Source: a virus (taxonomy: Duplodnaviria > Caudoviricetes). Taken from it: a DNA stretch of 54,687 bases. The DNA lies in IMG/VR virus record IMGVR_UViG_3300037212_000012, positions 1 to 54,687 of that record, one strand, 5' to 3'. Both the position numbers and the translations under genes were made by a program. The notes below the pieces were generated by a model that made no database searches, had not been told where the DNA came from, and worked only from the letters and a program-made list of their open reading frames with translations. Below, one piece after another: positions 1 to 54,687 of the stretch (position 1 is the stretch's first letter; each line of letters opens with the position of its first letter).

Positions 1-127
1 GTGCAAGATCCACCACATGATTTAATCCGCCTTTGGATCGAACTCGAAGTGTATAACCTGCCGTGTGCAAGATCCACCACATGATTTAATCCGCCTTTGG
101 ATCGAACTCGAAGTGTATAACCTGCCG
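1..127. repeat. 64-bp unit, two tandem copies at the window start; same unit at the window end
   Basis: GTGCAAGATCCACCACATG...TATAACCTGCCGT at 1-64 and 65-127 (63 bp). Identical to the copies at 54510-54687. Confidence 0.95.
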
Positions 128-973
128 CTTGGGGGCATAGTAGCTTGTTACGTAGCCTCTAAACATTGGGTGGGTGGTTATGACCTGCCCCAGGTTCAAG
201 TCCCAAGTGGCGGGCAGACTCAGAATCTCAACCAGTTTGTCCACAATTCCCGAATCCTCGCCAAATTTGGTCTTTTCGAGATCCCGCATGACTCCAAGCC
301 AGACCTTTGCCCTTTCGCTTGATTCCTCACAGTTATAACGACATGGGAACCACGGAATTACCTTGAACCCATAATAACGAAGATCTGACCTTATTAGAGG
401 GTCAAAGTTTGAAAGAGATATTGAGCCATCTAGATTCTTTTTGTGGGGCATGGCTAAGGCGGCTGGCATTACGGGATCAAAATTAACCTTGAAGTTCTCT
501 GTAAAGGCCGCGCTGCAACAATCCGGATAGCCCAGGTATCCGCCCATCCTAGCGTGATCACAACCGCCGAGTTTGAGTTCTGCCTTTACGAAGTCCTCGG
601 CTATATCGAGATCGCGAGCCACCACCCCAAATACCATGACATCTGGCCCGAGCCGATCTGTTGGAAAATGGGTGTGAGAGAACCCTTCGTATTGGAGGCT
701 CCGCCTCATTGGCAGAAACGCCAGTTTGTCCCTCATTATTTGGGCTATCTCGTTATCGTAGTTGTGCGGGGATAGGTGGAAGATATTCGCCTCCCTCTTG
801 CCCTGCCTGACCATTTCATACTCACTTTCATAGGCTAAGGTCGCTATTTTTCTCTTTAATCCCACTAAACCATGATCGGGATACTTTGCCATGAAAGCTG
901 AAAATGGTTTTGGATCTGTGATCTGAGTTTTTAAAGTTTCCTGATTTTGATTATCCATATTTACGCCCCCCAT
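86..973 (-). CDS. DUF483-like Cys-rich protein, putative accessory of the radical SAM cassette
   Basis: GGYLGYPDCC..AF and IPWFPCRYNC motifs resemble archaeal DUF483 proteins. Gene abuts or overlaps the end of the rSAM gene; the true start may be the second Met (958). Confidence 0.55.
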   Translation of the reverse strand: MGGVNMDNQNQETLKTQITDPKPFSAFMAKYPDHGLVGLKRKIATLAYESEYEMVRQGKREANIFHLSPHNYDNEIAQIMRDKLAFLPMRRSLQYEGFSHTHFPTDRLGPDVMVFGVVARDLDIAEDFVKAELKLGGCDHARMGGYLGYPDCCSAAFTENFKVNFDPVMPAALAMPHKKNLDGSISLSNFDPLIRSDLRYYGFKVIPWFPCRYNCEESSERAKVWLGVMRDLEKTKFGEDSGIVDKLVEILSLPATWDLNLGQVITTHPMFRGYVTSYYAPKRQVIHFEFDPKAD

Positions 974-2208
974 GAATCACCATGCGGCGAATCTCCGTGA
1001 TCATCGTAATCTCCATGACCGCCTGATTCCGAATCTCCATGCACCTGCTGTCTTGGCTGGCAGGCCGGTTGCTGGTGCCGCTGTTGCTGCTGCGGATATG
1101 GTTCTACCCATTTATTTTTAAGGTAGTAATCTTGATAAAAGTTTGGTACATCTATCGCCAGCCTGCGGCCAGGGTCCATAGCTCTTATGTGACGTTCCAA
1201 GTATTGCAGGAGTGCATAATAAGCCTCGCAGAATTCGGTTTTATTTCTCACGTCGCCGCCTACTCCCTCAGCAGGGCAACCGCCCGCGCAGATTTCAAAA
1301 TATCTGCACCCCTTGCACTGGGTCTGCTTTAGCATCTCTGACCGGACTAAAGTGGCCTGATGGGGTTGGTAGTAATATCCAGACTCAAAGCATCTGTCGC
1401 ACCTGGATAGATTGCCATCCGGCATTATGGTGGTGCATCTGGTCACGAGATAGTCACATCTCGTATAGAGACAGCAATTTAGCCCCTGGCCTTTCAGGTT
1501 TTTCATATTCTCTATGACCACTGCGGGCCGGAACTCATTTGGATGCTCTATATATGCCTGTGCAAATTTGAGAAAGGCTATTTTCAGCTCTTCGGGCGAG
1601 AGTTTATACTTCAACAGATGGCTTGCCTTGCAACTCGGCAGGAACATTTGGTTGTATCTACCATCGCTCTTGGTTTCAATTCCCCACCGAATTAATTCAT
1701 CAATCTTAGAAGGCGATGCATTGAGTTTAGTGAGAACCGTTATGGTGCCCACCTTTATCCCTTCGTCCTTCAGCCACTTTATGTTTTCCTGTAGCCTCTT
1801 TTGGTACTCTCGGTTGGCTTTCTTATCCCTCGGACCTCTTAAGGTATTGAATTTTGCCGGTCCATCTATCGAGACACCAACGCTCTGCATATGATATTCC
1901 TTAATTAACCTGATGTGTTCTGCCGTGAGATTCCAAAGGGCTGTCTGCATTGAGGGTTGACCGCCAACCGACTTTATGGTTTCCAATGAGAACTTAAAAT
2001 CTTCTATTGGCAAACTGGTTACGTCTCCGCCGTGGAGGATAACTTGGGGATGTTCATCCTTGCCCCATTGTTTAGATATGTCGCGCAGGGTAGCCGCCAT
2101 AGCCTCTTTATTATATCTCCCCGGTATGGATGGCTTGTTCTCGTCCTCAAAGCAATATTCACAACCTGTAGGGCAGTCCAACAGCATGTACCATAATATC
2201 GTGTTCAT
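961..2208 (-). CDS. Radical SAM/SPASM-domain enzyme (peptide/protein maturase type) with HGD-repeat C-terminal tail
   Basis: CPTGCEYC (CxxxCxxC), LHGGD, VGVSIDG; SPASM cysteines in IMPDGNLSRC and CKGCRYFEICAGGCP...C; Q-rich linker, then HGD x4. Confidence 0.93.
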   Translation of the reverse strand: MNTILWYMLLDCPTGCEYCFEDENKPSIPGRYNKEAMAATLRDISKQWGKDEHPQVILHGGDVTSLPIEDFKFSLETIKSVGGQPSMQTALWNLTAEHIRLIKEYHMQSVGVSIDGPAKFNTLRGPRDKKANREYQKRLQENIKWLKDEGIKVGTITVLTKLNASPSKIDELIRWGIETKSDGRYNQMFLPSCKASHLLKYKLSPEELKIAFLKFAQAYIEHPNEFRPAVVIENMKNLKGQGLNCCLYTRCDYLVTRCTTIMPDGNLSRCDRCFESGYYYQPHQATLVRSEMLKQTQCKGCRYFEICAGGCPAEGVGGDVRNKTEFCEAYYALLQYLERHIRAMDPGRRLAIDVPNFYQDYYLKNKWVEPYPQQQQRHQQPACQPRQQVHGDSESGGHGDYDDHGDSPHGDSWGA

Positions 2209-2249: not shown

Positions 2250-5243
2250 CTAATCGTAGAATGTATTGTCGTGTGGGGTATCCTTGTGCGGTAAGTCGTT
2301 ATGGTTATCTGCGTGAGGCGCATCTCCGTGTGGGATGTCCCTGTGGGGTATTGGATTATCGCTATGCGGTGAATCGGAGTGCGGTGCATCTTCGTGCGGT
2401 ATCCCGCAATCGCAGTGCCAAGACGAATCTTGGAAACTGGCTCCTTCTGAGTTGGCGTGGGCCGTGTTGCCGTGTGGTACTTCTGCCTGTATTACTTTTG
2501 CTGGCGTATTGCACCAGCTTGGGTCACCTGTGCTATCCGAATAGCCATGTTGGGTGAATAGAATCTGATAATCCCAGATAGGCTTATATTCAGGTCCGGG
2601 ACCTTCGTGTGAGCCTGTCACAATTGCATGACACCAGCTAGGATCACATTTTGGGCTTGATTGCTGGCAACCGCTCGGGTCTGGATTCCCTGTTGAGGCG
2701 CTTCCTGTGATAGTTGTGCATTCATCTATGTAGGCACCGTGATCACAATGATCCTGGTTTAAGAAGGGCACTGCGTCTTGGTTTGCGTGGAGCGTGTTGC
2801 CGTGGGGGGTGTAGGGCTGATTGGCATGGTTTGAGAAATCTGGAGTCGGACAATCACATTCATGATCTGCGTGAGGAGTGTCTGAGTGCGGCGTATCTGT
2901 GTGGGCTGGTCCACCATCGTTATAGATAACATCATTGTGAACGATATCGCTATGATGCCAATCATCCGAGTGCGGAGTATCCGAGTGCGGAGAGCCTGCG
3001 CAATCGCAATGGATTGCCTTGTCTGTGAAGGGCACTGAATTCGAATCGTAATGATTATTATCCAAATGAGAGTCTATATGCAGATTGTCATCGGAATAAT
3101 CGGTGTAACCGTCTTCGTAACCTGCGTCTCCATGCTCTACCGCGGGAACATTGAAATGGTCGTCAAAGTCTGGTGAGACTAATGAGGGGTCGTAGCTATT
3201 TTTATGGGGTACTGCCGCCTGAATGACTTTGGCTGCATCGTTGCACCAGGTCGGGTCTAGGGAGGAGTCTATATAAGCAAACTGGTTGAAATCAACCTGC
3301 CCGTCAACCATATGGCACCAACTCGGGCTACATTTCGGATGGCTCGGCGGGCATCCTCCTGAGTAGCCTTGCAGCATGGTGCATTCATCTGTCCAGATCC
3401 CACTGTTACAATGATCCTGGTTTATGAACGGAATGGGATCAGCGTCCGCATGACCACAATCGCAAAAAGGCATATCGGTAAAGCTATCACTATGCGAAAC
3501 ATTGCCGTGGACTATTTCGTCATTATGGCCCCCGTTGTGTTCATCTTGATAAGGTGCATCTCCGTGCGGCACATCATCGTGGTTTGAGTCTCCATGCGGT
3601 GTGTGGTCCCAAGGCGAATCTGCGTAGATATCCTGATAATTATTTTCATGAACCGGGCCGGGCGTATTCGAATGATTGCAAAAGTCTGAATGCTCGATTA
3701 CTTGGTTGGTATCCTGCCAGTTTTGGTGAATCGAGTCTGCAAAAGCTCTGTCGGAGTAGTTTGAAAAGTCTGCAAAAGCTCTGTCGGAGTAGTTTGAGAA
3801 ATCTGAAAATGTCGTATTATTATGGGTGGTATAGTCTGAATGCGCTTGATTTCCAAATGGACTGTCGGCGTGATTCGTATCAATGTGGTATGGGCCGTCG
3901 ATATGCGAGACATCGGAATGGGTAACATCGCTATGATTTGAAAAATCCCCATGACTAGAATCGATGTGGGCGGTATCGCCGTGAGCTCCCGTATGATTAT
4001 AATGAGCCACGTCACTGTGGGAACTATTTTCGTGGGCTAGATCTACATGGGATGATGGGGAATCCGTATGCGGGTCGTTATAATGTCCCGACATGTCGCT
4101 ATGGGGGGTATTCCCATGTGCGTTATCGGTATGCCAGTTATGCTGATAGCTATCATAATACCCATCATTGTGCTGCTGATAAGCGTAATCTACATGGGCC
4201 TGGTTTCCGTGCGGATTCCCGTCATTATGTGCTGTATTGCCGTGGTTTGCGAAATCCGAATGTGAGATATCTCCGTGCGAAGCATCTGTATGTGGCGTGT
4301 CGCCATGATCATTAAAATTGCTAAATGGGGTATCTCCATGACTTGCGGAGTTTGTGTGATCATTGTAATTGCTAAAATCCGTATTTGAGAATGGCGTATC
4401 ATTGTGGTTGGTCCAATCGGAATGTGCACTGCTATTTTCAAATACACTATCGGCATGCGCTATATCATGATGGTCCGAAAAATTTCCAAACGGCGTGTCG
4501 CTATATCCTGGATCGTTAAAATGTGACTGGTCGCTATGATCAGATATATCGAGATGAGCCTGATTTTCGAAAGGTGTATCAATATACTCAGAATCGTTTG
4601 AAAAGGCTACATCCTCATGATAGCCTGCGCTGGCATCATCAACATAATATTCGATGGCATCGGAGTGAGGGGTATCACCATGCTCAACCCCTCCCTGGTC
4701 GGCGTGCGGATTTTCACACCCTTCGTTGAGATGGTGATATGCTTTATATCGGTAACCTTCCACCTCATCTAAATATGCAGAATTGGCATGGGACGAATTG
4801 CACCAACTTGGATCTGATGAGCTTTGATTATGTCCATATTGGAGAAACCGTGTGTGGGTTGCCCCGTCGCCCGGATCATAGCTGCTACATTCTGAAGTTT
4901 TTCCTGACCTTGGGTCGCTGGGCGGACATCCTGGCTGTCCGGTTGATGGGTCTATCCAAGGTTCCCTATCAAGAAGATAGATAGGTACCCATTCGTCTTT
5001 GGGGATACCGCTATTACAATGCTCTGCGTCGCCGTGCGGTGCGTCTAAATGGCCGATTGGGTCGTTTGTGGCTTCGGGACCTCCCGGATCGGATTCTTGA
5101 GCTGGACCGAGACCATCTGCGAAAACGTATGTGTCGTTGTGTGTACCAGAATCGCAATGCGCTACATCTAAGTAGGGAATCTCTGCTACATCTTCATGTG
5201 AGCTATCTAGATGTGCATTGGTCCAACCGATACATTCACCCAT
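2250..5243 (-). CDS. 997-aa His-x-Asp/Asn repeat protein; candidate radical SAM substrate and tail-associated protein
   Basis: About 90 H-x-[DN] motifs by manual count, often 5 residues apart (e.g. PHSDSPHSDNPIPHRDIPHGDAPHAD). Also F/Y/W-x-[DN] motifs and three Cys-rich DPSWC-type modules. Confidence 0.85.
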   Translation of the reverse strand: MGECIGWTNAHLDSSHEDVAEIPYLDVAHCDSGTHNDTYVFADGLGPAQESDPGGPEATNDPIGHLDAPHGDAEHCNSGIPKDEWVPIYLLDREPWIDPSTGQPGCPPSDPRSGKTSECSSYDPGDGATHTRFLQYGHNQSSSDPSWCNSSHANSAYLDEVEGYRYKAYHHLNEGCENPHADQGGVEHGDTPHSDAIEYYVDDASAGYHEDVAFSNDSEYIDTPFENQAHLDISDHSDQSHFNDPGYSDTPFGNFSDHHDIAHADSVFENSSAHSDWTNHNDTPFSNTDFSNYNDHTNSASHGDTPFSNFNDHGDTPHTDASHGDISHSDFANHGNTAHNDGNPHGNQAHVDYAYQQHNDGYYDSYQHNWHTDNAHGNTPHSDMSGHYNDPHTDSPSSHVDLAHENSSHSDVAHYNHTGAHGDTAHIDSSHGDFSNHSDVTHSDVSHIDGPYHIDTNHADSPFGNQAHSDYTTHNNTTFSDFSNYSDRAFADFSNYSDRAFADSIHQNWQDTNQVIEHSDFCNHSNTPGPVHENNYQDIYADSPWDHTPHGDSNHDDVPHGDAPYQDEHNGGHNDEIVHGNVSHSDSFTDMPFCDCGHADADPIPFINQDHCNSGIWTDECTMLQGYSGGCPPSHPKCSPSWCHMVDGQVDFNQFAYIDSSLDPTWCNDAAKVIQAAVPHKNSYDPSLVSPDFDDHFNVPAVEHGDAGYEDGYTDYSDDNLHIDSHLDNNHYDSNSVPFTDKAIHCDCAGSPHSDTPHSDDWHHSDIVHNDVIYNDGGPAHTDTPHSDTPHADHECDCPTPDFSNHANQPYTPHGNTLHANQDAVPFLNQDHCDHGAYIDECTTITGSASTGNPDPSGCQQSSPKCDPSWCHAIVTGSHEGPGPEYKPIWDYQILFTQHGYSDSTGDPSWCNTPAKVIQAEVPHGNTAHANSEGASFQDSSWHCDCGIPHEDAPHSDSPHSDNPIPHRDIPHGDAPHADNHNDLPHKDTPHDNTFYD
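3734..3797. repeat. 33-bp tandem duplication inside the HxD gene (FSNYSDRAFAD x2)
   Basis: AGTCTGCAAAAGCTCTGTCGGAGTAGTTTGA at 3734 and 3767. Confidence 0.9.
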
Positions 5244-5587: not shown

Positions 5588-8500
5588 TCAAGCTCCCTTA
5601 CTAAATATAGTGTCGATGAAAATTTGCCCTTGTATCGATGCGGAGACAGCACAATGACAGGGTTGACCTGGGAAAGACTTGTTTGCCAATCCTAATTTGA
5701 GAGTATACGTGCCAACCGCGTTTACATAATCCGGATTTAATATTACCGGTCCAACCGTTCTTTCGCTGTCCGAAATTATCGCAGGCGATCCAACGACCTC
5801 CTTGAATACTCCTTTTGTATCCCCGATATATATACTTAGATACATTTCTGGGTCGGCTGGGTCGGGTGCTGGACCTGCCTTGAGGCTGTTTGCCTTTAAT
5901 AGCTCTTCAGTGGCGGGATTGCCAAAATTGTAATTTCCGACATTTATTATTAGAGGGACCGGTTGACCGTTCTTATTCGTCGTGCCTATTGTGAGATAAT
6001 CGTGCAAGGCATCATTCGTAAATTCTTCAGTCTCAAAAGCTTCAATTTCGTGGTCGTGGTCTGCTGGCGAAACGTCCACCGCGCCCGATGCCGGACCGAT
6101 ATCACCCGAGAGTGGATGCTTATGTATGGCTGAAGCTACGTCTATGGCCTCGACGTTGACTGATGTTACTACCTCTTTTGATGCCGATCCTATATCGGTG
6201 ATGACATCAACGCTGCGACTTATGACATTGAAAAAGTTCTTGCTACAATTGACTGCCGTACAGCAGTCCGCGGTTAGTTCAGCAATTGCCGAATCTGTCG
6301 ATAAAGATAATTGCCCTGCTACCAGATCAGAATTTACGTCGATGTTCTGAATAGCATTGTCAGTGTCGTCGCATGTCCCAATTTCTAATGAGTTGGTGTG
6401 AGTATGCAATGCTACCGCACAAGAGACCGATGCCGCCGAAGGTAGGGTCTTGAGCGATGCTACCGGATGCTTATGAACCGCGGAAGGCGTAGAAGCGCCG
6501 CCCCCACCTCCGCTCGAACCGTCGCCTCCGCCGCCTCCGCCCTGGCTGCCTGTTGGGGAGGAAACGGTAGCATTCGATCTATTGATTGTGATATTCAATA
6601 CCAGAGATTCAACGTTAAGAGTCTTATCCGGGATGTCGAAAGTGGTCTCAAGCTCAAGGTTGTTATCAAGATTATCCTGGCTCCAAGACCAACTAAAGGG
6701 CTGGATTGTGTCGGTCTGATGCTTGATATATTTGTCAACCATATTTTTTAGGGCCTGCCAGACCTGTTCAGGCTCAATAAGCTTATCTCCCGCCTTGATG
6801 GTCTGCTTGGTTCCATCTCCAATCTGAATGTCTAGCTCCTGGACCCTTAGACAGTTCTCATAAGCAAGGCGCTTGTTTCCAACCTGGAGATTTGCCAGAA
6901 CATAAATCTCGTCGCCTAGATTGCGGGTATCCAGAATACCGCTTTCGCTCTTTACAACTAGCGGAGCTTCAAATGTAATATTCTGGCTTGGGAGCATCTT
7001 GTCGGAGAGGTAATTGCTGGCGAATTTCTCGGCCATTGACTCGCTATGTTGTCCAGGATCGGCATATCGAACGAACCGACCGCCTCTGCCCATATTAACG
7101 TGCTCCCCAGCTATTACGGCTGTGCTGCCCTGGCCGAAACCGGCCACTATGACGCCATTGACCTGATAACGAGAGTCGGCCAATGTGAGATCCTTGATAG
7201 CGAGCAGATTATCGCTGTCCAGATAACGCCCGGCTGGATATGATTTGCTGCCCCTTCCGGCGTGGTCCATGACATCGATGTAGCAGATCCCTCCCCTATA
7301 GGATTCTTCGAATTCATAACCCGCACAGGTCAGGAGGTTAAAGATCACTTCGTAAGGGAGATCCCCGTTTGCGGTCTCCCAATAGAGAATATTTTCCGTT
7401 AGGGCGTCGCCTGTGATCTGGCCTAATCTAATCGGTACTATGCCTTCCCATATATTCGGGACGCTGATTATGTGGTAGTAGGGGCTCGTTTGGTCTGCTA
7501 GCCTGATGTATAGTGTTTTATTATTACTATCATGGTAATAACCTGAATTTGTGCCCGTCTCTAGGTCGTCCAAGGAGAGCCTTGTTATCAGGGCGGTACC
7601 GTCTGAGTACATCTTTGAGATCGTGTAAGGTAATCCTGAATAAATCCATTTATATACGCCTTTTTCTGTGTTTTCGTCATCCCATAACTCATAATATATA
7701 CAACTATTCATTATATATATCATGCCTGGAATATTGTTATTATTGACGGGCTCGGAGCTATTTAATATTTCTGTAAATGATACATTCTGCCAGATGTATT
7801 TTCCTAAGTAGAGTCCACCCTTGGGCGGATTGGGTTTGGCGACCTCCAGGAAGCCAAAAAGATCGGCTAAATATGTGCCATTCTCTTGCCATTGGCATGA
7901 GCGAGAGATGCCATTAAATCGCCTTTTGTCACCTGCTATGTAGATCGTACATAGGCAGTCCTCCGGAATGGGTTCACCGAGGTACATTTTAGCCTCGGAT
8001 ATCTGGCCGTATTTCCAGCTAATATGGCCTGAGACGATATCAGGATTTAGCGCCCCTCCCTGGACCGTTGTAACCTCTATCCAATCGTCTTTTGAGACCG
8101 AGACGGGCAGGTTATAATATCTGGATTGGGGCCAACGCAGATCCAATATCTTACAAGCCCATTGCTCGGAGTGCCACTTAAGGGACAGATCTCCTCGTGT
8201 AGAACCGCCAGAAAGCCACTTGAGAGATAACCGTCGATTGGTGAATTGTTCTGAAGGCCACTCCAGGGTGAGAACTTTAGTAGCGTGTGCATTTTCGGTA
8301 AGATTGGACCAGGTAAAATACCCATATATGCCGCCGTAATCGAAACTCTGTGAAAAAACGCTTATTGTAGGCCATTGAATTGTTAGATGTCTTCCTGTTG
8401 GGCCTCCCATAGACCAGATACATGTTAGATCCTTGGCAGTCCATTGTGAGGAGGGCCATTTTAAGCTGAGGAGTCTTGCTGCTCCCTGCTTTGAGGGCCA

Positions 8501-9094
8501 TTTTAAGCTGAGAAGACGAGAAGCCCATTGCTCGGAGTGCCATTGCAGGGTTAATGATTTTAAGACTTGTTGCTGAGCATACCATTGCAAGCTCAGTTCT
8601 TTGGCGGACCATTGTGAGGAAGGCCATTTTAAGGACAGAATATGAGATATCCACTGTACTGAAGCCCACTTTAGACTCAGTAATGCGGATATAAAATTCT
8701 CTGAAGGCCATTGCAGGCTCAACGATTTTAAAACTCTTTGTTGAGATGTCCATTGTAGGTTTAATGATTTTAAGACTTGTTGCTGAGCATACCATTGCAA
8801 GCTCAGTTCTTTGGCGGACCATTGTGAGGAAGGCCATTCTAGCGTGAGCGTATTTGCGATGAATTGCTCTGCGTCCCAGAAGAACATCAGAGATTTAGCG
8901 ATGCTCCCCCCTGACGACCACAAAACCGTTAGACTTTGTCCTGCGGTTCCTCCGGCGCACCACCCAAAAGTCAAGTCCTTAGAGAGCCATTGTGCGGAAT
9001 GCCATTTTAGGCTAAGGCTCCTTGACATGTGCGCAGCTTCTTGGGGTTGAGACCAAGTGAAATGGCCGTATATTCCGCCGTAATCGCTTGCCAT
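5588..9094 (-). CDS. Tail tip/hub protein with N-terminal 14-aa Trp repeats and C-terminal HxH fibre motifs
   Basis: Directly follows the tape measure gene. Central segment (NGVIVAGFG...NLGDEIYV...LRVQEL) resembles siphovirus tail hub proteins. HKH/HTH/HKH/HDH motifs near the C-terminus. Confidence 0.7.
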   Translation of the reverse strand: MASDYGGIYGHFTWSQPQEAAHMSRSLSLKWHSAQWLSKDLTFGWCAGGTAGQSLTVLWSSGGSIAKSLMFFWDAEQFIANTLTLEWPSSQWSAKELSLQWYAQQQVLKSLNLQWTSQQRVLKSLSLQWPSENFISALLSLKWASVQWISHILSLKWPSSQWSAKELSLQWYAQQQVLKSLTLQWHSEQWASRLLSLKWPSKQGAARLLSLKWPSSQWTAKDLTCIWSMGGPTGRHLTIQWPTISVFSQSFDYGGIYGYFTWSNLTENAHATKVLTLEWPSEQFTNRRLSLKWLSGGSTRGDLSLKWHSEQWACKILDLRWPQSRYYNLPVSVSKDDWIEVTTVQGGALNPDIVSGHISWKYGQISEAKMYLGEPIPEDCLCTIYIAGDKRRFNGISRSCQWQENGTYLADLFGFLEVAKPNPPKGGLYLGKYIWQNVSFTEILNSSEPVNNNNIPGMIYIMNSCIYYELWDDENTEKGVYKWIYSGLPYTISKMYSDGTALITRLSLDDLETGTNSGYYHDSNNKTLYIRLADQTSPYYHIISVPNIWEGIVPIRLGQITGDALTENILYWETANGDLPYEVIFNLLTCAGYEFEESYRGGICYIDVMDHAGRGSKSYPAGRYLDSDNLLAIKDLTLADSRYQVNGVIVAGFGQGSTAVIAGEHVNMGRGGRFVRYADPGQHSESMAEKFASNYLSDKMLPSQNITFEAPLVVKSESGILDTRNLGDEIYVLANLQVGNKRLAYENCLRVQELDIQIGDGTKQTIKAGDKLIEPEQVWQALKNMVDKYIKHQTDTIQPFSWSWSQDNLDNNLELETTFDIPDKTLNVESLVLNITINRSNATVSSPTGSQGGGGGGDGSSGGGGGASTPSAVHKHPVASLKTLPSAASVSCAVALHTHTNSLEIGTCDDTDNAIQNIDVNSDLVAGQLSLSTDSAIAELTADCCTAVNCSKNFFNVISRSVDVITDIGSASKEVVTSVNVEAIDVASAIHKHPLSGDIGPASGAVDVSPADHDHEIEAFETEEFTNDALHDYLTIGTTNKNGQPVPLIINVGNYNFGNPATEELLKANSLKAGPAPDPADPEMYLSIYIGDTKGVFKEVVGSPAIISDSERTVGPVILNPDYVNAVGTYTLKLGLANKSFPGQPCHCAVSASIQGQIFIDTIFSKGA
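8551..8838. repeat. 78-bp exact direct repeat (8551-8628 and 8761-8838) in the Trp-repeat region
   Basis: TTAATGATTTTAAGACTTG...GAAGGCCATT twice, offset 210 bp = 5 x 14 codons. Confidence 0.92.
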
Positions 9095-9100
9095 TGAACC

Positions 9101-12100
9101 TTATCGATTTAGATTGTTGTCGGTTTGGATCTTCGCTATCTTATTTGCCAGCTCGTCTATATTGCCTATAAGAATTCCATCGAAATGATAATGATTTTCT
9201 ATCACAGACGGCTTGCCGCCGCCTTTTATTAATGCCCCTCCGTGAGGCACCACATATTCTTCACCCTCCTCGCCTACGAGGGCGGCTGTTGCTCTTGATG
9301 GGGTCGGGCCGCCTGATGCATAGGTCGGGTATTGAGAAGTGAATCCAGTAAATCCGCTACCCCAGACAGAGGTATCGCCAGCGTGGCCGAAATAATTTGC
9401 TAGATTGGATAAACCTCCGCCGTTACTGCCTGCCGAGCCTCCGCCGCCTCCAACAACGTCAATACCTACTGTTATTGTTGCCGACATACCATTAATAGTA
9501 CTGACCGCTTGATTCGCTGATGCGAGCGCAGGGGTGGTGTCGGCGTCAGTTTTAATCGTGGCTGACTTCGCGCTCATATCCTTGAGCATTGCATCGGTCT
9601 GTTGCTTGTAGGAGCCTGTGTCGAGGTTTAGGACCTGACCGTTACTCTCTCTGCTTATACCCTGTTGGGCGTAAGTATCATACAAGGCCGAACCTGTCCT
9701 AGCTGGGATAACAGGAGGATAGCCGTTAGCCTGATCCCAGGCGGCGTATTTGTCGCCTGAGGCGCCGATATAAGCGCCCCTGAATAGGTCTGTCTGGGCC
9801 TCTTGCCATTTGCCAAAATCGGACATGACACAACCGGTACAATCCGAGACTACCCCTGATAACTGATTGAATCCGACGCTGGCATTTGCTACTTGGGCGG
9901 AACAAGATCCCGCTGCTCCGCCACAAGTTGAACAGGACGAACCTAAATTTCCTAGAGCTGTGGAAATCGCAGGAATCCCCGCCCCTGACAGTGTAGCGTT
10001 CAGTTGGTCGATAAGGAGGGACCAATCTATAGTTGCGGTTTCAAGGGCTCGGGCTGATGCGTCAGTTGAAATTTTGAGGTTATCTGCTGCTATGGCGGCT
10101 TTGTCTTCTGAAATAACTTTATCAGAATCATATTTATCCCACATGCCACCTAACTTAGATATGGCGTCTGTGTCATATTGTGCGAATTTTGATGCCTGAT
10201 CTGAAGCTGTGCCCATATCTTTTATGCTTTTACCAAGATCATCGGTTTTAACTTGCGTATCGGCGAGATTTTTGGGGGTGTAAACATTCGGTTGTGGGGT
10301 CGCTGGAGGGTATTGTGTCATTCCAGGTTTGGTGGTTGTGGTGATAGGGGTGAATGACCCTGCGCCCCCCACTGGCGATTTAAGACGGGTGTTCAGGTCA
10401 ACATCCTGCTGTTCCATATAGTTATAAGCCGATGCTGCTAGGCCCTCTATTGCAGGTTTCCATATCGAAGACCATATAGTACTTCCGCCTTGCGTTGTCC
10501 CGGCGACTTTATCAGCACCCGATCCCTGAATTATGCCAGTATTGCCGCCTATTCCAGAGCCGGGGATTACATCGCCAGATTTATAAATGTCTTCGCCTGC
10601 GGATGCTCCCATTCCAAGTTTTCCAAGTAACCAAGCTTCGCTGCCTCCAAGTTTATCAGACCATGATTGCCCGGATGCGGATTGGGTTTGTGGAGCCGGA
10701 ACATTGGTTTGTGGCGCGGGGGCTGGGGTATTGACGATATCATTTGGATGCGTTGCAAGATACTGGTTTATGCCACTCTCGGCAGCGGATTGTGAAGCAT
10801 ATTCAGAGCCATAAGCCCCCTGCATCGGCTTTCCGGTTGATGCGTCCATTATAACATATGTTGGGCCGCCTAGAACACTCTTATCACCATTTGGATTAGC
10901 AGCAACAGAAAACCGGGTTTGATTAACTTGCGGGGCTGATGTGCTTTGACTTGTGCCTGTGCCAGTTCCTGCCCCTTGTTGAATTAGATTGAATCCGCCT
11001 GCCGCCTGCGATGCACCATTTATCGCACCGACCAAATCCCCACTGAATGCATCGGCTAACATTTCGACAGATGCTATGACTCCTGCTATTGCCCCCACTG
11101 CACTATCATGGAAATTGTAGATTGCCTGGATAGCACCGATTGTGCCTTCATCAAAATTCAGTTTCATGGTGTCGGCGGCTAATTTGGAGTGATCGCCGAG
11201 TACGGTTTCAAGAGGTTTTAGAAGCGAATCGAGCGGCGTTTTTCCAAATAGAATATCCTGCCAGTTTAGCCCGGCCCCAATTACACCTTCCACATAAACA
11301 AGGGCCCCATTCAGAAGAGTAGCGAGAGCGTTCCCTAATGCGCCTGCATCCTGGTTATCTATGCCTGATGCAAACCGTGATACTAGGTTTTGGCCAGCCT
11401 TTTCGCCCGCTGCGCTCCAATCATAATTTTCGAAGTCCTGTGCTAGACTATCAAGGGCTCCTTTTATGTCGCCTGATTGAATTTTCTTGATAAATCTGTC
11501 GAATGCGTCGTAACCAGGACCTGCCAGCCAATTAGACCAATCTTGCGCAGGTCCGGCTACAACCTTTCCAATCTCATGGCCCATCTGGTCGAAAGTTTCG
11601 CCACCTCTATTTAGAGCGCGAGAAAGGTCATCGGTCTTTTGGCCTAGATCTGTGTCGGCTCCCGCTGCATCTTCCAATCCAGCTTTTAAGGCATATACTT
11701 GCGGCAGATTTTGAGCTATAGATAAAGCCATGCCAGCGTTTCCAGCGCCGAAAATTGGGGTAAACAGATCCTTCCCCGTTTTCTCCTGAGCTGCATATAA
11801 ATCTTGGATAGCCTTGATAGGGCCTTCTGCTTGTAATCCCGAGACTGTTAGGCCGGTACCTGTCAGATATTGGCCTATACCTTTTGCGGCTACAACCGTC
11901 TGGGTAACTTTACCTTTTGCCGATGTTGTAGATTTAAGCGCAGCATCCGATGACTTATCGAGATTGGCAGCAAAACTAACTAAAGTCGAACCGATCATGT
12001 TGGGCATTGCTTGAGGGGCTACCTGTTTCATCGTCTCTAACAATGCCAGCTCGCCGGTAAACCCGCCCAATGATTGGGACACTGCTTGTGACCCCTCCAT

Positions 12101-12976
12101 GGTCATTAAGGCAGACTTGCCTCGACCGCCTAGTTGGGTGGGGTCTAACGAGGGAATCATTTCGTAGGCTTTGGAGTAGACATCCATTGCCTGTTGAGCG
12201 GTTAAGCCAGATTTCTTATAGAGCTCTGTGGTTGACTGAATTGTTTTAGCAACATCAGCAGGGCTATTCATGGTGCCGACTGCCATGTTCATATACTGGT
12301 TTAGCTGGGCATCCGACATCTTCGAGGTATCAATGTTATAGGACCTGAGAAGCCCTAACATCCCATCAACATCGGACGCTGAAGTACCATATTGTCGCCC
12401 TAACTTCAGTGACTGGTCGGTAATGGCAGAAGTCGCAGAGGCCATGTTAGATTGTGTGGTGCCCCCTGACATCGCAGCCCTCGTTGCCGCATCGTTCAGG
12501 TCTGCGTAACCTTGAATATCATTCTGGATGCCAGCATAGATGTCTTCAAGACCTGAGACAACCGCGTCAAAGGCTGCTACTCCCGCGCCTATGGCGGCTC
12601 CCGCCGCGACCATGTCCCACATAGAGCTGCTTGCCCGGTCTGCTCCACTAGCGACTTCATCGAGAGCCGCGGCGTTTTCACCCGCGCTTAAGACGCCTTG
12701 AGCTGCTTCTTCTCCAGCCTGGCCTAAACTCCTAAGACTCTCGGCTCCTGTGTCAGCGGATGCTTGGATTCTGTCGCCTACTTCATCAGCAGAATCCTTG
12801 AGGACTTCAAAATCTGCTATGATTTCATCTGTCGGTAAAGCTAGTTTAGTGCCTTGAAAAGCGTCTTCGATTTCTTGGGCTTTGTCCTCTGCCAGGCTTA
12901 CCGCATCATTTAGAGCATCTTCAAGGTCATCAGTCGTGCCCTTTATCGCGATGCTAACCGAACCGGCGTCAACCAC
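9101..12976 (-). CDS. Tail tape measure protein
   Basis: 1291 aa, Ala/Gly/Ser-rich helical; N-terminal DAGSVSIAIKG; C-terminal YASGG...ALVGEEGEEYVVP typical of TMPs; position in the tail module. Confidence 0.88.
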   Translation of the reverse strand: MVDAGSVSIAIKGTTDDLEDALNDAVSLAEDKAQEIEDAFQGTKLALPTDEIIADFEVLKDSADEVGDRIQASADTGAESLRSLGQAGEEAAQGVLSAGENAAALDEVASGADRASSSMWDMVAAGAAIGAGVAAFDAVVSGLEDIYAGIQNDIQGYADLNDAATRAAMSGGTTQSNMASATSAITDQSLKLGRQYGTSASDVDGMLGLLRSYNIDTSKMSDAQLNQYMNMAVGTMNSPADVAKTIQSTTELYKKSGLTAQQAMDVYSKAYEMIPSLDPTQLGGRGKSALMTMEGSQAVSQSLGGFTGELALLETMKQVAPQAMPNMIGSTLVSFAANLDKSSDAALKSTTSAKGKVTQTVVAAKGIGQYLTGTGLTVSGLQAEGPIKAIQDLYAAQEKTGKDLFTPIFGAGNAGMALSIAQNLPQVYALKAGLEDAAGADTDLGQKTDDLSRALNRGGETFDQMGHEIGKVVAGPAQDWSNWLAGPGYDAFDRFIKKIQSGDIKGALDSLAQDFENYDWSAAGEKAGQNLVSRFASGIDNQDAGALGNALATLLNGALVYVEGVIGAGLNWQDILFGKTPLDSLLKPLETVLGDHSKLAADTMKLNFDEGTIGAIQAIYNFHDSAVGAIAGVIASVEMLADAFSGDLVGAINGASQAAGGFNLIQQGAGTGTGTSQSTSAPQVNQTRFSVAANPNGDKSVLGGPTYVIMDASTGKPMQGAYGSEYASQSAAESGINQYLATHPNDIVNTPAPAPQTNVPAPQTQSASGQSWSDKLGGSEAWLLGKLGMGASAGEDIYKSGDVIPGSGIGGNTGIIQGSGADKVAGTTQGGSTIWSSIWKPAIEGLAASAYNYMEQQDVDLNTRLKSPVGGAGSFTPITTTTKPGMTQYPPATPQPNVYTPKNLADTQVKTDDLGKSIKDMGTASDQASKFAQYDTDAISKLGGMWDKYDSDKVISEDKAAIAADNLKISTDASARALETATIDWSLLIDQLNATLSGAGIPAISTALGNLGSSCSTCGGAAGSCSAQVANASVGFNQLSGVVSDCTGCVMSDFGKWQEAQTDLFRGAYIGASGDKYAAWDQANGYPPVIPARTGSALYDTYAQQGISRESNGQVLNLDTGSYKQQTDAMLKDMSAKSATIKTDADTTPALASANQAVSTINGMSATITVGIDVVGGGGGSAGSNGGGLSNLANYFGHAGDTSVWGSGFTGFTSQYPTYASGGPTPSRATAALVGEEGEEYVVPHGGALIKGGGKPSVIENHYHFDGILIGNIDELANKIAKIQTDNNLNR

Positions 12977-14617: not shown

Positions 14618-15880
14618 ATGAGAATAAAGATAGAGGATATCAAGAGGGGAGAACGCCTGCGGCCCATCGACCGGTCAAAGGTCAAGGATCTAGCCGACAG
14701 CATCAAAGAGGTTGGACTGATTCACCCCATTGTGCTTACGCCTGATAACGTATTAGTCTCAGGTGAACATCGCATAGAGGCCATGTTACTGAATGGCGAA
14801 ACTGAGATAGAGTACACCGTCAAGGATTACGACGCTTTGCATAAAACGCTCGCTGAAATTGATGAGAATATCCAACGAGCAGAGCCTGAATACCTCTCAA
14901 GGGGCCGTATGTTGCTCAAGCGAAAGGAACTTTGGGAAGTTCTGCATCCCGAATCTGTATCAAGAGGCGGCGACCGAAAATCGCCAGACTACCAGGAGAA
15001 GAAGCAGGCTGGAAAACTCCCTAGCTTTAGGACCGATACCGCAAAGAAGCTCAGCATAGCTCCCAAGACCGTCGATAGAGAAGTCATGATAGCCCAGAAA
15101 CTCAGCCCTGTGGTCCAGGAGGAGGTTAGAAAAGTAGACCTACCGAAGAAAGATGCTCTGCTACTAATCAAGCATGCCCCTACTGAGCATCAGCAGATGG
15201 CGATTCTTAAACGTATGGAAGTTGGAAAGGCCAAAGATGTTAAAGATGCTTACAAGCAAATCGAAAAAGAAGATATGGCCGCCAAAGGTCGCGACATAGA
15301 GGGCGACGAGCTGGCAACTTTCCAAGAGGGCGACCCTATAGAATTGCTGAAAATGATCAATAATGAATCATTTAAGGCAATATTGACCTGCATATCGGAA
15401 GAATCTAAGATAGAAATTCTCTTGCGCGAGGGATCACGCATATTAGAACCTGAGGGGGTTCTCGCTCTGATGATACCGCCTTCCCTAATTGGGGCGGTCA
15501 TAAAGGCATCATGCCCAGTGGAAATAAGATACTACTGGACCATAGCCGACACCCTGGCAAAAACTATTGATGCCCTTAATGTCACCTCGGCTTGGATGCC
15601 CGTTATGATCTACGTTAAGGATGGTCAGGCCTTGAAACTCACCGCCGACTGCATCACCAAGGCTATAGACGCCCTGACACGAGAAGAGGACCACGCCATA
15701 CAGCTCATAGGCAAGATATCCAAGCCCGGGGATACCATCTTGGACCCATTCATGGGCCAGACATTACAGACCTACTTGGGGCCTGCGGTGGGCCGCAAAT
15801 TCGTGGGTTTCGGCAATAAGGGTATGATAGATCTAGCGAAAGGTCATTTGCATAGAGTCAAGGGCTTGGTAGCCATCTAA
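14618..15880 (+). CDS. ParB/Srx-like N-terminal domain fused to a degenerate N6/N4 DNA methyltransferase-like domain
   Basis: LADSIKEVGLIHPIV, SGEHRIEA, EIDENIQR, HTH; C-terminal PGDTILDPFMG...GRKFVG; no DPPY catalytic motif. Confidence 0.8.
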   Translation: MRIKIEDIKRGERLRPIDRSKVKDLADSIKEVGLIHPIVLTPDNVLVSGEHRIEAMLLNGETEIEYTVKDYDALHKTLAEIDENIQRAEPEYLSRGRMLLKRKELWEVLHPESVSRGGDRKSPDYQEKKQAGKLPSFRTDTAKKLSIAPKTVDREVMIAQKLSPVVQEEVRKVDLPKKDALLLIKHAPTEHQQMAILKRMEVGKAKDVKDAYKQIEKEDMAAKGRDIEGDELATFQEGDPIELLKMINNESFKAILTCISEESKIEILLREGSRILEPEGVLALMIPPSLIGAVIKASCPVEIRYYWTIADTLAKTIDALNVTSAWMPVMIYVKDGQALKLTADCITKAIDALTREEDHAIQLIGKISKPGDTILDPFMGQTLQTYLGPAVGRKFVGFGNKGMIDLAKGHLHRVKGLVAI

Positions 15881-19892: not shown

Positions 19893-21395
19893 TCAGGCCC
19901 CTTTGGATTTCTTAGCCTCGGCTACCTTAGCATCCAGCCTGGCATTTATCGCGTTATCCTGTCGCTTATCACAGGCCGCCTCAAGCTCATCGGCTAGGCA
20001 GGCATTGGCCTCCAGATCCTCGATTGTCTTGGCTGCTTCCATCGCTGCCTTAGCAGCCACCAGAGCTTCGGAGACCGACAGGAGTCTTACAATGAGACTG
20101 ATGCTGTAGCGGATCATGCCGCCAATCTTTACACCCATCTGGACCAGCCACATATTAGGTATGAGGTTCTTGTCATGGCCATACATCTTGACCAAAACGA
20201 GATTTGTTATCTCGCCGGTCTTCTGGTCCTTCAGGCCAAATGTCAGGCCGTCGCCATTATTAAATTTTCCTTCAATGTTGGTCTTGGGGTAAAGCTGCAT
20301 CTTCGAAATCTTCCCGAGACTCTTGTCATTCAGGATGAGGTCGTATTTCACATTAGAGTAGCCAAAAGGCGCGATGGAGATCTGGCCTGCTGCCTGAAGG
20401 TTTATGTCAGCCTTCGCGACGGGTTGCAAGGTCACGGCTAAAGTCGTGACCTGCTTATCTAGGACATCGAAAGCGATATCCTGCGAGACATAACCATCTT
20501 TCTGGATGGTTGCCTTGTAACTGCCTGCTACTAGGGCAATATCGCCGTCTGTGGCGCCCACTTTAGCCCCATTAACCAGGACATCAGCATTTAGGCCACC
20601 TGCATTGATGTGAACGCCTGTCTGAGCTACTGGCGGAACGGGCGGTATTGCCGTAACGGTGTAGACATAACCTGCATAATCCCGGAAGATGCCGCAGACT
20701 CCATAGGCTACCCAGGCATAACCGTCGAATCCCCAGGAAGTACCCCAAGAGTTCTTAACCAGCCAAGCACCCCGGACGTCATCATATCCTACGGCGCTCT
20801 GACAGTGGCCGCCCGCATAATCACCGTACTCAGGGGAGTAAACAGCTTCGGAATCAACATCAAAATAATCATCGTCGACATCCATAGCAAACTGAACTGC
20901 TTGCCCTGCCGCGATTGCTGCTTTTGCGGCTGCATCGGAAGTGATACGAGTAGCCGAGAGAATCTTAATCCTAGTATTGTTTGCACATGGTAAGGCATCG
21001 CCACCATAGGGCCAACAATCTTCTGTGCACACTCCGGTAGACTGAAGCCTTGCGTTTGCTTTCTCAAGCGTGGCTCCATTCGCGCAGGTGCCTATCGTGG
21101 CGAACAGGTCCGCCTCGGAGAGGTCGAGAACTTCTGTTTTGTTCTGGTCAGCGAACTTCTTTGTAGTCTCAAAGGTAGCGCACGAGCCAAACGCCACACA
21201 TGAACCACAATCTCCCTGGTCCTTTATGGGGGTGGCATAATCTTTCAGAGTGAATGCTACCGGTGTAGCTCCGAACCTATGCCCTTTGATGTTCTTATCT
21301 GCGAGATCTTCTTTTGTGGTTCTTTTCAGATCATCAGTGATGATGAGTCCCAATCTACGGACTTTTCCGCTTCCTTTCTTTGGTTCTCCCAACAT
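19893..21395 (-). CDS. Papain-family (C1A) cysteine protease with PEGA-like domain; candidate endolysin
   Basis: DQGDCGSCVAF (Gln/Cys), GGHCQSAVGYDD (His), WLVKNSWGTSWG.DGY (Asn); PEGA-like ADVLVNG..VG.T...GSYKATIQKDGY. Confidence 0.88.
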   Translation of the reverse strand: MLGEPKKGSGKVRRLGLIITDDLKRTTKEDLADKNIKGHRFGATPVAFTLKDYATPIKDQGDCGSCVAFGSCATFETTKKFADQNKTEVLDLSEADLFATIGTCANGATLEKANARLQSTGVCTEDCWPYGGDALPCANNTRIKILSATRITSDAAAKAAIAAGQAVQFAMDVDDDYFDVDSEAVYSPEYGDYAGGHCQSAVGYDDVRGAWLVKNSWGTSWGFDGYAWVAYGVCGIFRDYAGYVYTVTAIPPVPPVAQTGVHINAGGLNADVLVNGAKVGATDGDIALVAGSYKATIQKDGYVSQDIAFDVLDKQVTTLAVTLQPVAKADINLQAAGQISIAPFGYSNVKYDLILNDKSLGKISKMQLYPKTNIEGKFNNGDGLTFGLKDQKTGEITNLVLVKMYGHDKNLIPNMWLVQMGVKIGGMIRYSISLIVRLLSVSEALVAAKAAMEAAKTIEDLEANACLADELEAACDKRQDNAINARLDAKVAEAKKSKGA

Positions 21396-29381: not shown

Positions 29382-29479
29382 TTTTTCCCTTTGGTTTTGT
29401 TCGCTTTCGCCTCGCATTTTACCATAGCAGTAAACTTTGCTCTTGCCGCGACTTGTTTAGCCGATGGTTGTTTTGCCAT
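29378..29479 (-). CDS. 33-aa Lys/Ala-rich microprotein (not in ORF track)
   Basis: MAKQPSAKQVAARAKFTAMVKCEAKANKTKGKK; GAGGTG SD; stop overlaps the next GTG. Confidence 0.55.
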   Translation of the reverse strand: MAKQPSAKQVAARAKFTAMVKCEAKANKTKGKK

Positions 29480-45064: not shown

Positions 45065-45360
45065 TGTGATGAAATGCGATAATCGTCATGGGATGTCCAG
45101 GGTCAACGGGAAGCACCCCAAACGCTCAACGGTCGATTCGTGGCTATACCAAAGAGGTGTATCCTCTCAAGATGATATCAAGGTTGGACCGTCCATCGAA
45201 TACACTCCCGCCGTTCATCTTTGTGTCTCAAGGCACACATCGCGGCGGGTAACTGCTTTGTATGTAGCATCTTTTAGGATTAATCCTTTTCCATCAGATC
45301 ATACCTATTCTTGAAGAAATGAGGCAATCCCGGAAGAGATACGAGCTTCCCACCCTCATC
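45065..45360. ncRNA. Candidate large structured RNA, right part
   Basis: Stems AGAGG/CCTCT (45153-67), CCCGCCG/CGGCGGG (45207-13/45243-49) with an inner hairpin, AGGATTAATCCT; no convincing ORF. Confidence 0.45.
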
Positions 45361-54527: not shown

Positions 54528-54687
54528 GATTTAATCCGCCTTTGGATCGAACTCGAAGTGTATAACCTGCCGTGTGCAAGATCCACCACATGATTTAATC
54601 CGCCTTTGGATCGAACTCGAAGTGTATAACCTGCCGTGTGCAAGATCCACCACATGATTTAATCCGCCTTTGGATCGAACTCGAAGT
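54510..54687. repeat. 64-bp unit, about 2.8 tandem copies at the window end
   Basis: Copies start at 54510, 54574 and 54638 (partial). Confidence 0.95.

Follow-up and report, generated by a model that had tools for sequence, protein, structure and literature searches.

In the 54,687-bp window analyzed here, which comprises the whole of the complete viral genome IMGVR_UViG_3300037212_000012 of IMG/VR (Caudoviricetes), the open reading frame (ORF) P0001 encodes a protein crowded with short aromatic-x-Asp/Asn motifs (the HxD protein), and it is followed by P0002, encoding a radical S-adenosylmethionine (SAM) enzyme with a SPASM domain, and by P0003, encoding a DUF483-like protein. Our analysis suggests that P0001 is probably a protein-sized substrate of P0002 that is modified at its motifs by triceptide-like cyclophane chemistry. 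A fuller version of this proposal, which we put forward only tentatively, is that the viral enzyme P0002 acts on a ~110-kDa virion protein, stapling it at as many as ~150 sites into a rigid fiber, that the cassette encoding this chemistry is widespread, and that the substrate grew in the present lineage to three units. To our knowledge, cyclophane crosslinks made by radical SAM enzymes have been described only for short secreted peptides.

The motif enrichment in P0001 is real and lies far above chance. The protein contains 149 [HFYW]-x-[DN] tripeptides, compared with 42.9 ± 5.3 (maximum 58) in 1000 composition-preserving shuffles of its sequence, and these motifs take up 92 of its 108 His, 29 of its 34 Phe, 20 of its 43 Tyr and 8 of its 16 Trp residues; conversely, 149 of its 213 Asp/Asn residues carry an aromatic residue at position -2. 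A scan of i/i+2 residue pairs that presupposed no motif returned the pairs H-D (z = 13.6), F-N (z = 8.3), H-N (z = 5.9), Y-D (z = 5.8) and F-D (z = 3.9), and allowing Ser at position 3 raised the count only from 149 to 152. P0001 is acidic (isoelectric point (pI) 4.55; grand average of hydropathy -1.07) and rich in His (10.8%) and Asp (13.7%), and the scarcity of Lys, Arg and aliphatic residues noted in a preliminary description of this DNA was evident in its composition (Lys 1.1%, Arg 0.7%, Leu 2.0%, Met 0.5%). When ORFs with at least 10 motifs in some stretch of 100 amino acids (aa) were defined as motif-dense, P0001 was the only such ORF among the 80 in the window that reach 100 aa; its densest stretch of that length holds 25 motifs, that of the enzyme P0002, which comes next, 6, and those of the others 5 or fewer.

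A gene of this kind accompanies the enzyme in most related loci. The alignment of the enzyme family retrieved 48 viral loci and four clear relatives in genome bins, and synteny was scored in the 50 loci that encode an enzyme relative with at least 600 nt upstream. A motif-dense ORF was found directly upstream on the same strand in 37 of these 50 loci and within 1.5 kb in four more (41/50 in total); it was located elsewhere in five loci (downstream in L019 and L053, and 3-3.5 kb upstream in L039, L046 and L047) and absent from four. Only ten of the remaining 1633 ORFs (≥ 100 aa) of these loci were motif-dense, comprising three antisense shadows, two enzyme ORFs and the five displaced substrates. 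A relative of P0003 was present in 47 of the 52 related loci, mostly directly downstream of the enzyme. The substrates of these relatives range from 176 to 1471 aa, and searches of viral contigs with exact peptide patterns returned no close relatives of P0001 or P0002. In one genome-bin contig (L053, 7207-10336) the order is permuted, with the DUF483-like gene, the radical SAM gene with a motif-rich tail and, downstream, the aromatic-x-D/N protein, and the three cassette genes are still linked despite this altered order. In two loci a gene for a class-I-like methyltransferase lies directly upstream of the aromatic-x-D/N gene (L006:8789-9352 and L020:8183-8980; PHROG matches of 1e-11 and 2.8e-27, respectively), and it may be an optional fourth member of the cassette or, alternatively, may speak for DNA modification as the function of the neighboring enzymes.

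Comparison with the ortholog P0066 (749 aa, 45% identical to P0001 over 724 aligned positions; a search for it in metagenome contigs found none) revealed what is conserved within the motif. At position 1 (n = 112), 70 residues were identical, 24 were replaced by another aromatic residue, 12 by a non-aromatic one and 6 fell into gaps, such that 94 of the 106 aligned non-gap sites were aromatic in P0066; the swaps from P0001 to P0066 comprised H to F (9), H to Y (4), Y to F (3), Y to H (3), W to Y (2) and single cases of others, including one H to W. A parallel pattern was observed at position 3 (n = 112), with 58 identical residues, 37 D/N swaps, 12 other residues and 5 gaps, giving Asp or Asn at 95 of 107 non-gap sites. 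Identity at non-gap sites amounted to 46/104 at position 2 and 164/347 for residues outside the motif. These substitution counts indicate that positions 1 and 3 are constrained by class and not by identity. Across the 28 distinct substrates among the related loci, only His (4.68-fold), Phe (2.1-fold), Trp (2.05-fold) and Tyr (1.95-fold) were enriched two residues before Asp/Asn, all 16 other residues standing at 0.63-fold or less. The restriction of position 1 to aromatic residues thus held in P0066 and in the 28 relatives, bearing out the earlier suggestion that His interchanges with Phe, Tyr and Trp and that aromaticity itself is selected.

The same data bear on a metal-binding protein, in which His and Asp would coordinate Ni, Co, Zn or Fe, so that the protein would serve as a sponge for storage or sequestration or form a multimeric fiber whose rungs are stitched by metal, with the radical SAM enzyme unrelated or accessory. 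Such a role would suit the abundance of His and Asp in P0001 and the many relatives that are almost purely H-x-D (L016 with 93/101 motifs, and Cumys_13 of a cultured Thermus phage with 54/61), and iron-binding HxH motifs occur in phage fiber proteins. We nevertheless consider it unlikely, as the non-ligands Phe and Trp fill the His position (the 29 Phe and 8 Trp motifs of P0001; L004 and L006, in which His starts only 3 of 30 and 9 of 37 motifs, respectively), the ortholog exchanges His for Phe, Tyr or Trp and swaps Asn and Asp freely, and the tight link to a SPASM maturase would go unexplained. The replacement of His by Phe and Trp likewise weakens the metal sponge that had been proposed in the preliminary description with a methanogen host in mind; the genome-bin matches of the enzyme search included no methanogen and were scattered contigs of bacterial metagenome-assembled genomes.

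The spacing of the motifs was preferential without being fixed. Among the 148 intervals in P0001, 5 was the commonest (62), followed by 3 (22), 6 (17), 8 (12) and 4 (10), and the autocorrelation peaked at lag 5 for aromatic and for D/N positions alike (z = 7.6), with a consensus unit [ST]-[PA]-[HFYW]-[SGA]-[DN]. Of the 5-residue lattice described previously, the preferred period therefore stood, but its regularity did not, since exact 5-spacing survives no more than four consecutive motifs and the preferred spacing varies among relatives (3, 4 or 5, depending on the substrate), the closest relatives preferring 3. This loose lattice, together with the spacings of the relatives, points to the tripeptide and not the pentad as the selected unit, and a constant tripeptide at variable spacing fits the recognition unit of an enzyme better than a fold of fixed pitch. 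Pfam and NCBIfam scans of P0001 yielded no family at E ≤ 0.1, a sequence search of the PDB nothing at E ≤ 1, and an ESM Atlas feature search no usable match (structural rows all at a template-modeling (TM) score ≤ 0.19). Structure prediction likewise gave a predicted local distance difference test (pLDDT) score of 0.29 with ESMFold in the ESM Atlas and of 29.6 with AlphaFold2 (AF2), the latter from an alignment of two rows and without secondary structure. The absence of a predicted fold fits a chain that is made rigid by covalent staples.

Alternatively, the repeats could act unmodified, with [STVA]-[PA]-[HF]-[SG]-[DN] pentads forming a quadrilateral beta-helix around an aromatic ladder, while the radical SAM and DUF483 proteins act elsewhere, for instance on DNA. 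Strictly pentameric relatives exist (intervals of 5 in 83 of 100 cases in P0007 and 51 of 62 in P0010, with runs of 9-10 exactly 5-spaced motifs in some relatives), and the FSN-rich part of P0007 weakly matches PF23894 LD_SV2 (E = 0.0012, below the cut-off), which we take to be a pentapeptide-repeat fold. A DNA target would be in line with the methyltransferase genes upstream in L006 and L020 and with the cyanobacterial homologs of the radical SAM and DUF483 genes, which adjoin deazapurine genes according to the accessible part of PMC11437467. For P0001 itself, however, the breaks in phase, the lack of any Pfam pentapeptide family at the threshold given above and the lack of a fold predicted by ESMFold or AF2 render a beta-helix implausible, and its closest relatives prefer a spacing of 3. 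In addition, a motif-dense gene accompanies the enzyme in 46 of 50 loci, the tail of the enzyme itself bears the motif, and SPASM-domain enzymes modify proteins or peptides. Overall we regard an unmodified beta-helix as quite unlikely, although it may apply to the strictly pentameric relatives.

P0002 is a radical SAM enzyme with a full SPASM domain (PF04055, E = 2e-12, 48.0 bits against a cut-off of 29.5) and passes the cut-off of the SPASM model TIGR04085 (27.4 versus 27 bits); its CxxxCxxC motif (aa 12-19) and its SPASM cysteines (aa 246-327) form a pattern that is conserved in the family alignment. Its best NCBIfam matches were TIGR04083, DynA, the anaerobic sulfatase maturase, AmcB and YhhB. 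Matches to the DynA, anaerobic sulfatase maturase, TIGR04083, YhhB, AmcB, DarW and GrrM/OscB models were obtained for all 22 scanned family members, the HxsB model matched 17 of the 22 weakly (best E = 1.6e-10), and the PapB and QhpD models also matched the family. The only PDB match of P0002 by single sequence was the triceptide synthase ChlB, and a literature search for TIGR04083, Mhun_1560 and rSAM_pep_methan found none of these names. Judged by these matches, P0002 represents a new family within the clade of SPASM enzymes that modify proteins or peptides.

The enzyme also carries the motif of its presumed substrate. The C-terminal tail of P0002 reads ..HGDSESGGHGDYDDHGDSPHGDSWGA, and 15 of the 22 enzyme family members had at least three aromatic-x-D/N motifs in their last 70 aa, compared with 0.3-2.6 motifs per 100 aa in the body of the enzyme; the enzyme ORFs of L031 and L053 even exceeded the motif-density threshold themselves. 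This tail may serve in self-modification, in autoinhibition or in tethering.

In triceptides, a radical SAM/SPASM enzyme links the aromatic ring of residue 1 to Cβ of residue 3 within an aromatic(1)-X(2)-X(3) tripeptide; links from His-C2 to Cβ are documented, and the enzymes accept Phe or Trp in place of His (accessible part of PMC11499958). A crosslink from Trp-C6 to Cβ has been reported for a WVN motif (10.1101/2024.12.16.628070, accessible part). P0001 and its relatives fit the signature expected of the substrates of such an enzyme, namely positions 1 and 3 conserved by class around an unconstrained position 2, a spacing that varies and an obligate SPASM enzyme partner, and the conserved radical SAM/SPASM gene next door fits the enzymatic modification that the preliminary description had implied. 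We infer that P0002 acts on P0001. Under this proposal, each aromatic-x-Asp/Asn tripeptide would be a modification site, at which P0002 would abstract a hydrogen from Cβ of the Asp or Asn at position 3 and the resulting Cβ radical would couple to the ring of the position-1 aromatic residue. Some 150 staples of this kind could turn an acidic chain that lacks a fold into a rigid, protease-resistant rod, which would be displayed on the virion tail, probably as a tail-associated fiber; display on the tail is probable because the P0001 gene closes the late structural operon.

Several points weigh against stapling of P0001 by P0002. The NCBIfam matches of the enzyme lie far below the curated cut-offs (YhhB, 51.9 versus 445 bits; AmcB, 60.8 versus 425; GrrM/OscB, 35.1 versus 310; FxsB, 24.6 versus 370), and a search of the PDB with the family profile ranked the anaerobic sulfatase-maturating enzyme anSME (2.9e-20) above ChlB (5.9e-16), so that P0002 belongs to no characterized cyclophane family. 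Known triceptides, as described in the accessible literature, are short leader-core peptides with one to a few motifs that are released, whereas P0001 has 997 aa and 149 motifs, and its crosslink is putative. The two-row alignment behind the AF2 model and the deazapurine neighbors of the cyanobacterial homologs count on the same side. The synteny counts overstate the independence of the loci, as these include near-duplicates and hold only 28 distinct substrates. Finally, a tail setting is not shared by all loci, ten upstream neighbors scanned in other loci comprising one tail fiber, two methyltransferases, two PHROGs of unknown function and five proteins without a match.

The repeats of P0001 are interrupted by three Cys-rich modules (Table 1), the second and third of which are flanked by a total of four C-D-C motifs. 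The modules align with 22 invariant columns (H-C, G-C..S.P, DP.WCN), and two of them run into AKVIQA.VPH, which agrees with the earlier view of them as paralogous inserts. M3 is the segment most conserved relative to P0066 (68% identity, versus 46-52% elsewhere), which suggests that the modules are functional. A profile of the modules, run against 1.84 billion representative proteins, recovered only P0001 itself and P0066, and tblastn with the three modules against all fetched loci gave no match at 1e-3; on this sequence record the modules are lineage-specific. Few Cys residues are found in most related substrates and none in 9 of the 28, and the modules are thus not a general docking site for the enzyme. 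Both roles that had been suggested for them consequently lost ground, the general enzyme recognition site for the reasons just given and the folded knot because no fold was predicted and the AF2 pLDDT stayed below 50 in these segments. Position 2 of the motif holds 11 of the 28 Cys residues of P0001, compared with roughly 4 expected from the share of sites at that position; possible candidates for the role of these residues and of the C-D-C motifs are a metal site, a disulfide or a second type of crosslink.

An origin for this architecture is suggested by the smaller substrates of the closest enzyme clade, seven distinct proteins of ~180-245 aa (L002, L004-L007, L011 and L012). In all seven, [FH]C[ND]H.. 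stands ~9-10 residues before the C-terminus, and in four of the seven DHC[DN] occurs among residues 1-22. The end signature lies internally in P0001, as FCNHSN (HCDHSN at the aligned place in P0066), each Cys module opens with a start-like [DE]HC[ND]xG, and P0001 itself terminates in ..HDNTFYD, similar to the ..H[TN]DTY[IN] with which the small proteins end. P0001 thus appears to have arisen by the concatenation and expansion of about three units of ~200 aa, each opened by a Cys module. At the DNA level, Tandem Repeats Finder reported a period of 33 with 2.3 copies at 3734-3809, and its two full copies (3734-3766 and 3767-3799) share 97% identity, compared with 60-90% for the other internal DNA repeats of P0001, which identifies the duplication as the one recent event, much as previously proposed. 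In P0066, a module of the M1 type (aa ~305-400, ..EGWIDPVTGKNGCPPS..) occupies the place of M2, which suggests that the two viruses differ through exchange or conversion of paralogous modules. Residues 1-292 of P0001 are missing from P0066, or else P0066 is truncated at its N-terminus.

P0003, the third conserved member of the cassette, scored 20.2 bits against DUF483 (PF04467), under the gathering threshold of 25 bits, and in its ESM Atlas neighbors only 16-40% of the members carry DUF483; its homolog in a Thermus phage is annotated as a DUF483-domain protein. Four Cys residues (C152, C153, C211 and C215) are invariant, H100 is nearly so, and an LGYPxCC motif is present. The AF2 model of P0003 was confident (pLDDT 89), a Foldseek search of the PDB with this model found nothing at E ≤ 0.001, and the wide fold search with VIA gave a best score of Z = 7.1 to 2guk (function unknown), and one of Z = 5.5 to NleE, which methylates Cys. 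As such Z scores fall in the range that is commonly met, we assigned no function to P0003 from these two structures. Pfam, NCBIfam and fold searches detected no protease family or fold in P0003.

This last result is relevant to a poly-precursor, in which the long protein would be modified and then cut by P0003 into short cyclophane peptides serving as toxins, signals or host-takeover factors. A motif-rich substrate, a radical SAM/SPASM enzyme and a third conserved gene make up a set resembling that of RiPPs (peptides made by ribosomes and modified after translation), the invariant Cys residues and nearly invariant His of P0003 would suit a processing enzyme, and the three-unit P0001 recalls multi-core precursors. 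We consider it very unlikely given that no protease was detected in P0003, no conserved cleavage motif was seen between the units, the cassette holds no transporter or immunity gene, and relatives fuse their repeats to large N-terminal domains of virion type. A non-structural effector akin to HxsA, which would block DNA entry of competing phages (superinfection exclusion) or counter such a defense, is highly improbable: HxsA does have His-Xaa-Ser repeats and needs the radical SAM proteins HxsB and HxsC to mature (accessible part of PMC13128918), and the HxsB model weakly matches most of the enzyme family, but the HxS repeats are highly basic (same source) whereas P0001 is acidic, Pfam and NCBIfam detected no equivalents of HxsA, HxsC or HxsD, no signal peptide and no peptidoglycan-binding domain, Ser almost never occupies position 3, and the gene sits in a late structural operon. 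Both the cleaved precursor and the HxsA-like effector are conceivable accounts, without specific support.

Cultured phages offer further context for stapling by P0002. The enzymes of the Thermus phages Cumys, phiMa and phiLo are 28-30% identical to P0002. In Cumys, baseplate genes are followed by a tail collar fiber gene, a 97-aa ORF, Cumys_13 (61 motifs in 343 aa), the radical SAM gene and the DUF483 gene, and phiMa has the same layout. A three-gene 'rSAM module' has been noted in phages and prophages and an unknown DNA modification proposed for it, on the grounds of the deazapurine neighbors of cyanobacterial homologs and of fusions of DUF483 to methyltransferase or radical SAM domains (PMC11437467); the accessible part of that source makes no mention of aromatic-x-D repeats. 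Some HxD proteins have N-termini resembling tape-measure proteins or Laminin_G_3, and in L033 a tail-fiber gene lies next to the substrate gene. Collectively, the tail context supports a virion fiber without proving it. Literature searches returned nothing linking phage proteins to cyclophane or triceptide chemistry, and found 'His-Xaa-Asp' or 'HXD' repeats only in unrelated senses.

The complete genome has direct terminal repeats, an exact 114-bp sequence at window positions 1-114 recurring at 54574-54687, and the minus strand holds most of its genes. The P0001-P0002-P0003 cassette comes last in the late operon, near the genome's left end, from which the stop of P0003 is 85 nt away; a gap of 41 nt separates the P0001 stop from P0002, and P0002 and P0003 overlap by 13 nt. 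The cassette holds no protease or transporter gene. No relatives of the small ORF P0004 were found among the fetched loci, and relatives of the large upstream protein P0005 (31-33% identity) precede the cassette in L002, L005 and L050. Over its first ~330 aa, P0005 consists of successive repeats, each of roughly 20 aa and containing Trp (..SLSLKWPSSQWSAKELSLQWYAQQQVLK..), and near its C-terminus it has a Gly-rich linker and short His-rich motifs. The features are listed in Table 1.

Table 1. Positions in the 54,687-bp window of the cassette genes, their internal segments and other features
Feature	Position	Strand	Basis or remark
P0001, aromatic-x-D/N (HxD) protein, 997 aa, 109.6 kDa	2250..5243	(-)	ORF open throughout
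Cys module M1, aa 70-161, 4 Cys, most divergent of the three	4761..5036	(-)	alignment
Main repeat block, aa 176-590, dense in [HFYW]-x-[DN]	3474..4718	(-)	
33-bp tandem duplication, FSNYSDRAFAD encoded twice	3734..3799	(-)	partial third copy to 3809
Internal FCNHSN signature, aa 521-526	3666..3683	(-)	
Cys module M2, aa 600-687, 6 Cys, followed by AKVIQAAVPH	3183..3446	(-)	alignment
Second repeat block, aa 688-820, bracketed by C-D-C motifs at aa 746-748 and 796-798	2784..3182	(-)	
Cys module M3, aa 821-927, 6 Cys, followed by AKVIQAEVPH	2463..2783	(-)	alignment
C-terminal repeat block, aa 928-997, ending ..HDNTFYD	2253..2462	(-)	
P0002, radical SAM/SPASM maturase, 415 aa, presumed modifying enzyme	961..2208	(-)	family matches
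Substrate-like C-terminal tail of P0002, aa 385-415, four HGD motifs	964..1056	(-)	
P0003, DUF483-like, 295 aa, third conserved cassette gene	86..973	(-)	sub-threshold Pfam match
P0004, small ORF, 99 aa	5236..5535	(-)	stop overlaps P0001 start by 8 nt
P0005, large protein upstream of the cassette, 1168 aa, weakly tail-like	5588..9094	(-)	phrog_6079, E 0.0024
Very large ORF	9101-12976		
Mu-F-like head morphogenesis gene	27561-29417		

Elsewhere in the genome, a TnpB/Cas12f-like gene (OrfB_IS605 plus TNB domain; 43846-44967, minus strand) is overlapped by a 402-aa ORF on the plus strand (43861-45069). The middle of the structural region (19893-21395, minus strand) encodes a cysteine peptidase of the papain family (4.4e-28) that is fused to a PEGA domain. 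Two proteins with a ParB-N domain are encoded at 14618-15880 (plus strand) and 42195-43346 (minus strand); one of the two has a weak DNA methylase C-terminus and the other DUF4417. No tRNA genes were found in the window, and neither megablast of its first 25 kb nor tblastn of the terminase-like ORF and P0005 matched cultured phages.

If P0002 does staple P0001, cyclophane chemistry would be applied dozens to ~150 times on large viral proteins, constituting a new class of covalently stapled structural material. A function would also be at hand for the three-gene module of the cultured Thermus phages, which was earlier guessed to modify DNA, and could be tested in those phages. Furthermore, the substrate scope of SPASM enzymes would widen to Asp or Asn at position 3 with His, Phe, Tyr or Trp at position 1, and protein engineering would gain a natural scaffold with hundreds of enzyme-installable staples.

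Among characterized systems, the triceptide synthases and their substrates (XyeB/XncB, YhhB, HaaB, HtkB, ChlB, AmcB, GrrM/OscB and FxsB) come closest. As far as the accessible sources describe them, they share with P0001 the aromatic tripeptides, often several per substrate, the use of His, Phe, Tyr and Trp at position 1 and, in WVN, a documented Asn at position 3, and like them P0001 adjoins a radical SAM enzyme with a SPASM domain; unlike triceptide substrates, P0001 has almost only Asp or Asn at position 3. The HXS system resembles that of P0001 in having a His-x-X repeat protein that needs radical SAM maturation and a role in phage-host conflict, and differs in being bacterial, with five basic HxS repeats, two radical SAM proteins and HxsD, compared with one radical SAM enzyme and a DUF483 protein here; the change reported for it comprises N-terminal processing and +8 Da (PMC13128918, accessible part). 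Like P0002, anSME and the Cys-Asp thioether enzymes PapB and QhpD belong to the SPASM enzymes; these three act on proteins or peptides by abstracting side-chain hydrogens. Asp carbons are the point of attack for PapB and QhpD, and the target motif of anSME is C/S-x-P/A-x-R. P0001 differs from the targets of all three, as the anSME motif is absent and its Cys residues are irregularly spaced relative to Asp. The modules of Cumys and phiMa match the P0001 cassette in having the same three genes in the same order, after baseplate and tail-fiber genes. Cumys_13 has an N-terminal domain with a triple GSxWxEG..LxYxD and a single Cys, whereas P0001 is three times longer and carries the Cys modules and many Phe, Tyr and Trp motifs.

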